From: an uncultured Gammaproteobacteria bacterium
GTDB taxonomy: Bacteria; Patescibacteriota; Patescibacteriia; Magasanikbacterales; UBA922
Direction of reading: 5' to 3'
NCBI GenBank assembly: GCA_964345045.1
Contig: CAYFPM010000002.1
Span: 219,481 to 283,480, forward strand
DNA: 64,000 bases
In this document: one piece after another, positions 49,026-49,637 of the stretch
How the letters are laid out: every line of letters starts with the position of its first letter
How positions within the stretch are numbered: the stretch's first letter is position 1
Translations under genes and position numbers: made by a program
The notes under the pieces: model-generated
What the model was told of the DNA's origin: nothing
The model's input: only the letters and a program-made list of their open reading frames with translations
Database searches by the model: none

Positions 49026-49637
49026 TGTGCGAATTACGAAATTTACGAATTATTTTTATTTATGTACGAATTACGAATAGTGCGAATTTACGAATTATTA
49101 TAGTTGTGATTTATTATTCTTTTTATAGCGACACCCTTGTGGGTGAAGCAAGCAATTAAAGCTAATTTTTTATTTAATACTTCAGTATACTGTTTTGTCT
49201 GAGATATTATTGAGTGTGGTACAAATTTATCTCTTTTTAATTCTAATACTATTTTATCCTCTATTAAAAAATCTAAAAAGTATTTGCCTATTAATTTATT
49301 ATGAAATTTTACTGGCACATATACTTGTTCATTAAATTTGAGTCCAGCTTGTTTTAAAGCTATAGCCGTGGCTTTTTGATAATAGCTTTCTTTGTGGCCA
49401 CCTCCAAGTTGATTTGAAACTTGAAACAGTACCCCGTTTATTTTAAAGCTTAAATCCGGATAAATTAGATCATTTCGTTTAAGTCTATATTTCCCCTCCA
49501 TAGTAGTTTATTCATACAAAATTACCCAGACACCCTATCACAATTGTTCCCATATCCGCAAATGTTTTATCAAATAGTTTATTCGTAAATTCGCACTATT
49601 CGTAATTCGTACATCTGTAATGTTCCTAATTCGTACA
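49026..49637. mobile_element. composite MITE-like element: split terminal inverted repeats enclosing a GxxExxY-family gene
   Basis: The left end (49026-49097) carries only forward units (tgtgcgaattacgaa / tgtacgaattacgaata). The right end (49579-49637) carries only reverse-complement units (tattcgtaattcgtaca). The same units form the two arms of the 75-bp MITE copies elsewhere. No transposase. Confidence 0.5.
49088..49501 (-). CDS. GxxExxY family protein
   Basis: 137 aa. GHKESYYQKATAIALKQAGL...DKIVLELK matches the GxxExxY family pattern (G..E..Y, ...ELK). The stop overlaps the left repeat. Confidence 0.7.
   Translation of the reverse strand: MEGKYRLKRNDLIYPDLSFKINGVLFQVSNQLGGGHKESYYQKATAIALKQAGLKFNEQVYVPVKFHNKLIGKYFLDFLIEDKIVLELKRDKFVPHSIISQTKQYTEVLNKKLALIACFTHKGVAIKRIINHNYNNS

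Follow-up and report, generated by a model that had tools for sequence, protein, structure and literature searches.

GxxExxY nuclease genes of CPR bacteria in compact cassettes bracketed by inverted arrays of short units, with features of rRNA intervening sequences

The 64,000-nucleotide stretch analyzed here (the window; positions 219,481 to 283,480 of contig CAYFPM010000002.1, assembly GCA_964345045.1) carries a small gene for a GxxExxY-family nuclease enclosed between two inverted arms of tandem short units. Gene and arms form a 615-bp unit (49024-49638) that fills the gap between the stop codon of a Na/Ca exchanger gene (49641) and the start codon of an S-adenosylhomocysteine hydrolase (AdoHcyase) gene (49019) except for about 6 nt. 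The nuclease gene, the exchanger and AdoHcyase all lie on the minus strand. Compared with close relatives, this unit is a genuine insertion, and cassettes of the same build are found at roughly 50 distinct operon junctions in bacteria of the Candidate Phyla Radiation (CPR). We give an even chance to the reading that the cassette is a selfish element of the intervening sequence (IVS) type, which is co-transcribed with the host operon, has a stem that is probably handled at the RNA level and carries the nuclease as its own gene.

The cassette and its arms

The positions of all features are collected in Table 1. The inner arms form an inverted repeat of 34 nt (49062-49095 with 49581-49614) with 100% complementarity. 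The outer pair (49025-49051 with 49617-49638) is weaker; the outer matches, between 49025-49051 and 49588-49638, show 81-82% complementarity. The inner 3' arm contains the stop codon of the nuclease open reading frame (ORF) and the codons just before it. CGAAT units run forward only at 49030-49095 and reverse only at 49581-49633. The arms are nested in the order outer arm, inner arm, gene, inner arm, outer arm, with 9 + 2 nt between the arm pairs, an arrangement that fits a cassette sitting inside a gene-less palindrome. The core 17-mer (3 mismatches or fewer) has 11 matches in the window against 0.15 expected, and TACGAAT has 28 against 6.9 expected; no shuffle reached either count. The initial annotation of this locus had placed a GxxExxY gene between split inverted-repeat arms at 49026-49637 and had described short palindromes elsewhere in the window as forward units followed by reverse units. 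Both descriptions stand: the gene matches PF13366 and TIGR04256, the 34-nt inverted repeat is perfect, and the units are oriented as it had them.

The G+C content is 38.6%. The nearest homologues of the nuclease and of the neighboring exchanger come from sources named Magasanikbacteria or Patescibacteria, and an identical nuclease protein is present on ENA metagenome contigs of PRJEB17505. We take the genome to be that of a CPR bacterium.

Insertion at the exchanger/AdoHcyase junction

The gene order Aminotran_4-PfkB-Na_Ca_ex-AdoHcyase is kept in three relatives (L140, L141 and L142). The gap between exchanger and AdoHcyase is 32 nt in L140, whose exchanger is 80% identical, and 8 nt in L141 (CAAACAAT); both gaps are free of repeats. 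Arms and gene are jointly absent from these two junctions and therefore arrived together. The residual flanks of the cassette in the window, AA and ACTAT, resemble the empty-site sequence CAAACAAT of L141. No target-site duplication of at least 3 nt was found at 28 cassette junctions or in the comparison of the window with the empty sites.

At this junction L142 has a 105-aa GIY-YIG gene (7036-7353), which is bracketed by its own 33-nt inverted repeat, TGTCATCCTGAGTGCAACGAAGGATCTCTC.

Recurrence of the gene-plus-arms package

Homologues with 60-70% identity sit in unrelated operons (CysD / CysNC, LemA / M48 peptidase, pilin / solute-binding protein, glycosyltransferases), and all of these are flanked by 5'-ATGTRCGAA-(unit)n ... 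(unit)n-TTCGYACAT-3'. A metagenome scan gave 80 further loci. A strict test for RCGAA arrays was positive at 29/72 loci; because the unit sequences vary, it under-called the architecture and was superseded by motif-agnostic scoring of inverted repeats. With this scoring, the flanking inverted repeat exceeds the shuffle maximum in 66/69 homologous loci from CPR metagenomes. Median scores are 50 for own flanks (69 loci), 23 for cross-locus arm pairs and 17 for shuffles. The 152 neighbor genes taken as controls have a median score of 18; 15 lie above the threshold of 24, and 6 score at least 40. Three of these 6 are PF05635 23S_rRNA_IVP genes and one is a further PDDEXK_3 gene; another PDDEXK_3 gene among the controls scores 32. 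In a second CPR GxxExxY subfamily (Parcubacteria, Staskawiczbacteria, Roizmanbacteria), four loci have a like build, three of them above threshold. The check proposed in the initial annotation, whether other GxxExxY genes are flanked in the same way, comes out positive in both subfamilies, and its refuting case, other GxxExxY loci without the repeats, does not hold.

The units are diverse in sequence (TACGAAA/T, TTCGAAT, TACAAAT, TACTAAT, TACGGAT, ATGCGAA, CTAAGTT and others), and the unit type is common to both arms of any one cassette. Chains of at least three exact 5-mers at 6-11 nt spacing occur in 44/73 upstream and 53/73 downstream flanks, compared with 4/239 control pieces. The 23S_rRNA_IVP genes found in protein-coding operons at six loci are also bracketed by inverted arrays of their own units, including CTAAGTT, TTGTTAxA, TTGGGT, AAAGTTTAT and TAAACAT. 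Rfam searches did not place the repeats in any family, and they revealed no rRNA in the window or at 11 other loci. Some genomes have several cassettes: L111 has two, and in L098 (Parcubacteria GW2011_GWA1_42_7) three GxxExxY cassettes with differing arm units lie within 2.3 kb of a PrgI/VirB4-like cluster.

Operon embedding and inheritance

Sister cassettes are 460-560 bp long. The cassette shares its strand with the upstream neighbor in 38/41 loci and with the downstream neighbor in 39/41 (binomial p against 0.5 of about 5e-9 by our own arithmetic). Relative to the upstream stop codon, the median start of the inverted repeat is -1 nt, and its median end lies 4 nt ahead of the downstream start codon. 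Gaps in CPR operons are of a few nt, so this close fit may be no more than a sign of where insertions can be tolerated. There is no excess of promoter-like or terminator-like sites at the cassettes, which together with the orientation bias fits a gene dependent on read-through transcription.

Cassettes that resemble each other most are found in the same genomic context, with protein divergence close to that of the neighbor genes. L087 and L095 share 88.9% identity in the cassette protein and 90% and 78% in the neighbors. Near-identical full cassettes in differing contexts were not observed. The junction upstream of a PrgI-like gene holds a full cassette in L094 and a gene-less palindrome in L076; the next junction along has a cassette in L076 and none in L094. 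The picture drawn from these comparisons is one of rare insertion, followed by long vertical retention at orthologous sites.

Conservation and covariation of the arms

When the whole cassette is folded as RNA, the arms pair around the ORF with -151.7 kcal/mol (z -9.15). L087 and L095 differ at half of their synonymous sites (pS 0.50), yet only 2/35 arm positions have changed, each matched by the mirror change in the opposite arm. For cassettes at orthologous sites, complementarity is 54.7 with the own arm and 39.1 with the swapped arm (Wilcoxon p 2e-10, for pairs that are not independent). In 13 pre-selected ATGT-type cassettes from differing contexts, 94% of cells are paired and 13/29 pairs change on both sides. 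Compensated cells number 42 in this set, compared with 15.7 +/- 2.9 in shuffles (0/500), and slid controls for covariation reach at most 0.051 versus 0.316. As judged from these alignments, the arms are shown to be far better conserved than synonymous sites and to covary.

The GxxExxY nuclease

The 137-aa ORF matches PF13366 PDDEXK_3 (E 3.9e-23, 82.5 bits, cutoff 22) and TIGR04256 GxxExxY (84.5 bits, cutoff 35). The GxxExxY motif of the window protein reads G35-H-K-E38-S-Y-Y41. The candidate catalytic residues D77, E87 and K89, and also E38, are invariant in a family alignment of 29 sequences. An AlphaFold2 model (pLDDT 90.4) is a minimal PD-(D/E)XK domain. Its closest solved folds are Cas4 SSO0001, MGME1, lambda exonuclease, splicing endonucleases and Hjc, all with TM of about 0.4-0.5, and no sequence relative of the nuclease was found in the PDB. 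Proteins of the family consist of the bare nuclease domain of 125-137 aa without an extra DNA-binding domain. In ten orthologous pairs dN/dS is 0.02-0.18, indicating strong purifying selection on the ORF; this and the invariance of the four residues argue that the protein is functional. On such comparative grounds the nuclease is the conserved core gene of the element and not arbitrary cargo. PADLOC and PHROGs gave no match for the nuclease, which leaves readings as a defense gene or a phage gene without support, and a scan of viral contigs found no relatives.

The codons after the start are nearly always GGAGG(G) (Gly-Gly), e.g. ATGGAGGGG, both in the window (49499-49493) and in sister cassettes. 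This is a Shine-Dalgarno-like string within the ORF.

Gene-less palindromes

Three palindromes in the window are made of the same units as the cassette and hold no gene (solos, Table 1). Forward units followed by reverse units span 14106-14165, 14847-14913 and 53411-53514. The solos are about 88-91% identical to the cassette arms; the three have their arms in common and differ in their loops. Solo hairpins fold with z of -4.6 to -9.2. The initial annotation listed two of these copies correctly (14102-14177 and 14843-14917) and missed the third (53407-53518).

Solos occur in some genomes only (the window, L050, L061, L064, L076 and L118), and where they occur, their units match the variant of the resident cassette. 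Those of L076 are near-identical to one another. Many genomes have a cassette and no solo within 20 kb. Either solo or cassette may have come first; the nested order of arms in the window would fit a cassette that entered a solo.

In L050, forward and reverse arms lie about 100 nt apart at 7492-7655, which may be a decayed cassette. In tblastn, the spacer weakly but consistently matches several GxxExxY proteins over residues 41-92 (E of about 0.02), and we do not rely on these matches.

Table 1. Positions of the window cassette, its host genes, solo palindromes and sister cassettes
Feature	Sequence	Positions	Strand	Remarks
Outer 3' arm (relative to the minus-strand gene)	window	49024-49051	-	three RCGAA units; ends 4-5 nt before AdoHcyase start codon
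Inner 3' arm	window	49061-49097	-	four TACGAAT-type units; 49062-49095 is half of the perfect 34-nt inverted repeat
GxxExxY / PDDEXK_3 gene	window	49088-49501	-	137 aa
Leader, start codon to 5' arm	window	49502-49580	-	79 nt; longer than in most sister cassettes
Inner 5' arm	window	49581-49614	-	perfect complement of 49062-49095
Outer 5' arm	window	49617-49638	-	starts 2 nt past Na/Ca exchanger stop codon
Na/Ca exchanger, upstream host gene (context, outside the element)	window	49641-50600	-	synteny with L140-L142
AdoHcyase, downstream host gene (context, outside the element)	window	47604-49019	-	
Solo, same units as cassette	window	14101-14177		overlaps upstream stop codon by 1 nt, ends at next start codon
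Solo, same units as cassette	window	14842-14918		between two plus-strand genes
Solo, same units as cassette	window	53405-53520		longer loop; between two minus-strand genes; not in the initial annotation
GxxExxY cassette	L098	4013-4390		TACGGAT units
GxxExxY cassette	L098	4739-5140		TACGAAA units
GxxExxY cassette	L098	5837-6247		ATGCGGA units
23S_rRNA_IVP gene	L076	7152-7505		PF05635 confirmed by Pfam
23S_rRNA_IVP gene	L095	1527-1886	-	PF05635 confirmed by Pfam
23S_rRNA_IVP gene	L086	376-741		PF05635 confirmed by Pfam
23S_rRNA_IVP gene	L139	8564-8935		PF05635 on record
23S_rRNA_IVP gene	L117	6528-6767		tblastn match only
23S_rRNA_IVP gene	L127	525-686		tblastn match only

Comparison with rRNA intervening sequences

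Intervening sequences in rRNA consist of an inverted-repeat stem, in some species around an S23p/23S_rRNA_IVP ORF, and are excised by RNase III (PMC4990558). In the 23S IVS of Coxiella, two to three tandem GACAGAT heptamers precede the ORF, and the first of them is where RNase III cuts; the ORF itself is decaying, and the origin and function of such IVSs are called unclear (PMC4990558). The cassettes share several features with these elements (Coxiella burnetii helix-45, Leptospira). A small ORF lies in the loop of a long inverted-repeat stem, and tandem heptamer-type units stand beside the ORF as in Coxiella, four per arm in the window cassette. Short forms without an ORF exist alongside ORF-bearing ones. 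Both kinds of element lie in sense orientation within a transcribed unit and are sporadic in distribution, and some sister cassettes on these CPR contigs encode members of the IVS protein family itself. There are also differences. The cassette lies between protein-coding genes and not in 23S helix 9, 25 or 45 or in 16S rRNA, and its ORF is a PD-(D/E)XK nuclease instead of the four-helix-bundle S23p / 23S_rRNA_IVP protein. Since neither the location in rRNA nor the ORF family agrees, we describe the cassette as working like an IVS and not as a member of the rRNA IVS family. Unlike the decaying Coxiella ORF, the cassette ORF is under strong purifying selection.

If the cassette is an IVS-type selfish element, it would be transcribed by read-through from the host operon, and its arms would anneal to give a stem of roughly 35-60 bp, at whose base the stop and start codons of the host genes would lie. 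By analogy with rRNA intervening sequences, the stem would then be cut or otherwise handled at the RNA level, so that expression of the operon would not be disturbed by the insertion. The nuclease would be encoded by the element for its own propagation or maintenance; breaks that it may make at palindromes or junctions would be repaired by copying of the cassette. The gene-less palindromes would be ORF-less members of the element class, in parallel to the short and the ORF-bearing rRNA IVSs.

Several points weigh against this reading. Cleavage of the stem by RNase III is proposed by analogy. Mismatches between the arms lack a wobble signature specific to one strand (71 are GU-type, 64 AC-type and 291 other), and without a G-U bias the covariation could be explained equally by an RNA stem, by a DNA hairpin or cruciform, or by copying of one arm from the other. 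The 13 hairpins behind the covariation figures were pre-chosen for arm complementarity of at least 22/32. Relatives in the sampled loci have 44-70% identity and are all from CPR bacteria. A plain stem leaves the tandem-unit build of the arms unexplained. The lack of a target-site duplication also counts against the reading. Finally, in the part of the survey of CPR rRNA insertions available to us (PMC11270868), IVP, LAGLIDADG and GIY-YIG were among the ORFs and GxxExxY was not.

One bolder proposal, which we hold as possible though rather doubtful, is that GxxExxY nucleases and heptamer-array palindromes constitute an unrecognized mobile system with autonomous and non-autonomous members. The enzyme would recognize the structure of its own arms and drive both the copying-in of cassettes and the amplification of solos. 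Such elements, together with 23S_rRNA_IVP and possibly GIY-YIG cassettes, would then be the source of rRNA IVSs. No description of this architecture for GxxExxY genes was found in the open-access literature.

Alternative explanations

The cassette could instead be a classical transposon with terminal inverted repeats that moves by cut-and-paste or copy-and-paste, with GxxExxY as a minimal transposase and the solos as miniature inverted-repeat transposable elements (MITEs) derived by internal deletion. We consider this unlikely. Terminal inverted repeats and an empty site are present, and cassettes occupy about 50 contexts. The near-identity of the L076 solos, the match of solo units to the resident cassette in the window, L050, L076 and L118, and the orthologous junction with a full cassette in L094 and a solo in L076 also agree with transposition. 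On the other hand, neither the 28 junctions nor the empty-site comparison show a target-site duplication of at least 3 nt, and the protein is a bare 125-137-aa nuclease domain without an added DNA-binding domain. The same arm architecture is shared by IVP genes, which are not nucleases, and the three cassettes of the L098 genome have three arm sequences. The closest pairs share context and diverge like their neighbors, with no near-identical copies in differing contexts, and many cassettes have no solos within 20 kb. The view of the initial annotation that the cassette is the parent, or a cargo-carrying variant, of short MITEs therefore holds in part. There is a discrete inserted unit with an empty junction in L140/L141, and solos are about 88-91% identical to the arms or, in L076, near-identical to each other. 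Against it, the gene is a conserved core and not cargo, inheritance is mostly vertical, many genomes lack solos, IVP genes are arranged alike and the tandem-heptamer arms are as in the Coxiella IVS. The flanking target-site duplications that it proposed to seek by comparison with empty sites did not appear. The cassettes and solos are like Correia, ERIC and RU-type MITEs in being short, multi-copy intergenic palindromes with a longer, gene-bearing relative that shares their ends. They are unlike them in having no target-site duplication and no recognizable transposase of insertion sequence (IS) type, and in having tandem-unit arms that covary. No known IS-family transposase was found within the cassette.

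As a separate observation, a weak Y1_Tnp (IS200/RAYT-type) match lies at 4280-5014 of L138 (Roizmanbacteria), 2.5 kb from a GxxExxY cassette; it is the sole such case seen.

Two further explanations are improbable to the same degree. One is a partnership like that of REPINs (hairpin-forming doublets of repetitive extragenic palindromes, REPs) and RAYTs (REP-associated tyrosine transposases), in which a vertically inherited, domesticated nuclease gene replicates gene-less palindromic doublets. In the known systems, the gene is flanked by a dispersed hairpin repeat and is largely vertical with long persistence (PMC3116915, PMC3337134, 10.1101/2021.07.10.451892). Exactly this arrangement (PMC3116915, PMC3337134), in which inverted copies of a repeat enclose the gene and the repeat also occurs scattered as hairpin doublets, is seen here, with vertical inheritance at orthologous sites, purifying selection and solo units of the same variant as the resident cassette. 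However, the enzyme is a PD-(D/E)XK nuclease and not an HUH Y1 transposase, and in place of single REPs the arms contain tandem arrays of 7-9-nt units. Several copies with differing arms occur per genome (three within 2.3 kb in L098, two in L111), most cassette loci have no nearby solos, and the window cassette is an insertion absent from close relatives.

The other is homing, with the cassette gene as a free-standing homing endonuclease gene that targets the center of a solo palindrome. The nuclease would cut gene-less palindromes or cruciforms, repair would copy the gene in, and the arms would be the split target. Homing endonuclease genes (T4 seg/mob; PD-(D/E)XK I-Ssp6803I) are small nuclease genes that lie between conserved operon genes, are patchy in distribution and leave no target duplications; they are not normally bracketed by long inverted repeats, which the cassette has. 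Homing would account for the nested order of arms in the window and in L061, where the 9 + 2 nt of the window are similar to the 9-nt loops of the solos, and for orthologous junctions with a solo in one genome and a full cassette in another. Mosaic arms occur, the fold resembles nucleases of the Hjc, Cas4 and lambda exonuclease type, and the L142 junction holds a GIY-YIG gene with its own inverted repeat. This reading is opposed by the empty sites of the window cassette, which have no palindrome at all, by the single arm pair of most cassettes and by the IVP cassettes, which have no nuclease.

Integron gene cassettes are promoter-less, small, co-oriented and packed ORFs, each with an imperfect palindromic attC that works as a folded single strand. 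Here the arms lie on both sides of the ORF and not together downstream, and the sites are housekeeping operon junctions instead of an attI array. No integrase appears in the called gene lists of the loci, and no search aimed at integrases was made.

That ordinary host regulatory hairpins (terminators, attenuators or mRNA stabilizers) enclose the gene by chance is highly improbable and strongly disfavored by the association statistics: several families of unit-built palindromes do fill intergenic gaps and tRNA spacers of this genome, all between co-directional genes, but the association holds in 66/69 loci against about 10% of control genes, each arm covaries with its own partner, arm sequences vary among cassettes, arms and gene are jointly absent from relatives, and T-tract terminator features are lacking.

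Implications for small-protein families in odd contexts

GxxExxY and the 23S rRNA IVS protein are two very widespread families of small proteins of no known function that are found in odd places. In CPR bacteria both are cores of compact, stem-bracketed cassettes lying exactly between host stop and start codons. Selfish insertion, instead of functional linkage, is then one explanation for their odd contexts, and caution is advised in annotation by guilt-by-association. IVP genes have been reported wedged between cas genes (PMC3936711), and the present result reinterprets them as selfish insertions. With nuclease, arms and natural empty sites in hand, the old question of the nature of IVSs and of their movement becomes testable. 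If the proposal of a common source is true, it would supply an evolutionary origin for rRNA intervening sequences, a matter without explanation since 1990. The analysis also documents a repeat architecture of palindromes made from tandem 7-9-nt units, with many unit sequences in CPR bacteria and TACGAAT also in Bacteroidota.

Other unit-built palindromes

Palindromes of other units are present in the window. One of TAGCGTA / TAAACGC units (54782-54853) fills the gap between tandem MacB/FtsX-like genes, and the orthologous MacB/FtsX-like junction holds a GxxExxY cassette in L074 and L126. Palindromes of TGTCAAT/TGTTAAT units (16309-16392 and 16478-16553) fill spacers of a minus-strand tRNA cluster (16235-17076), so that unit-built hairpins also lie within a stable-RNA transcription unit. 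A short palindrome of CAGTAAA-type units (29007-29063) lies between two minus-strand genes.

Scanning genome contigs with GTACGAATTACGAATNNNNCGAAT gave matches in metagenome-assembled genomes (MAGs) of Bacteroidota only, and none in the species of the window or other CPR bacteria. No GxxExxY gene was found by tblastn and the family HMM within about 4 kb of 44 Bacteroidota palindrome loci, so these loci have no bearing on gene linkage there. The Bacteroidota MAG loci (L004-L047) hold palindromes of the form GGGTACGAATTACGAAT...ATTCGTAATTCGTACCC with the TACGAAT unit, e.g. L013:3849-3923 and L005:3423-3648. One Bacteroidota locus has a 4 x 60-nt tandem array of TACGAAT-type units.

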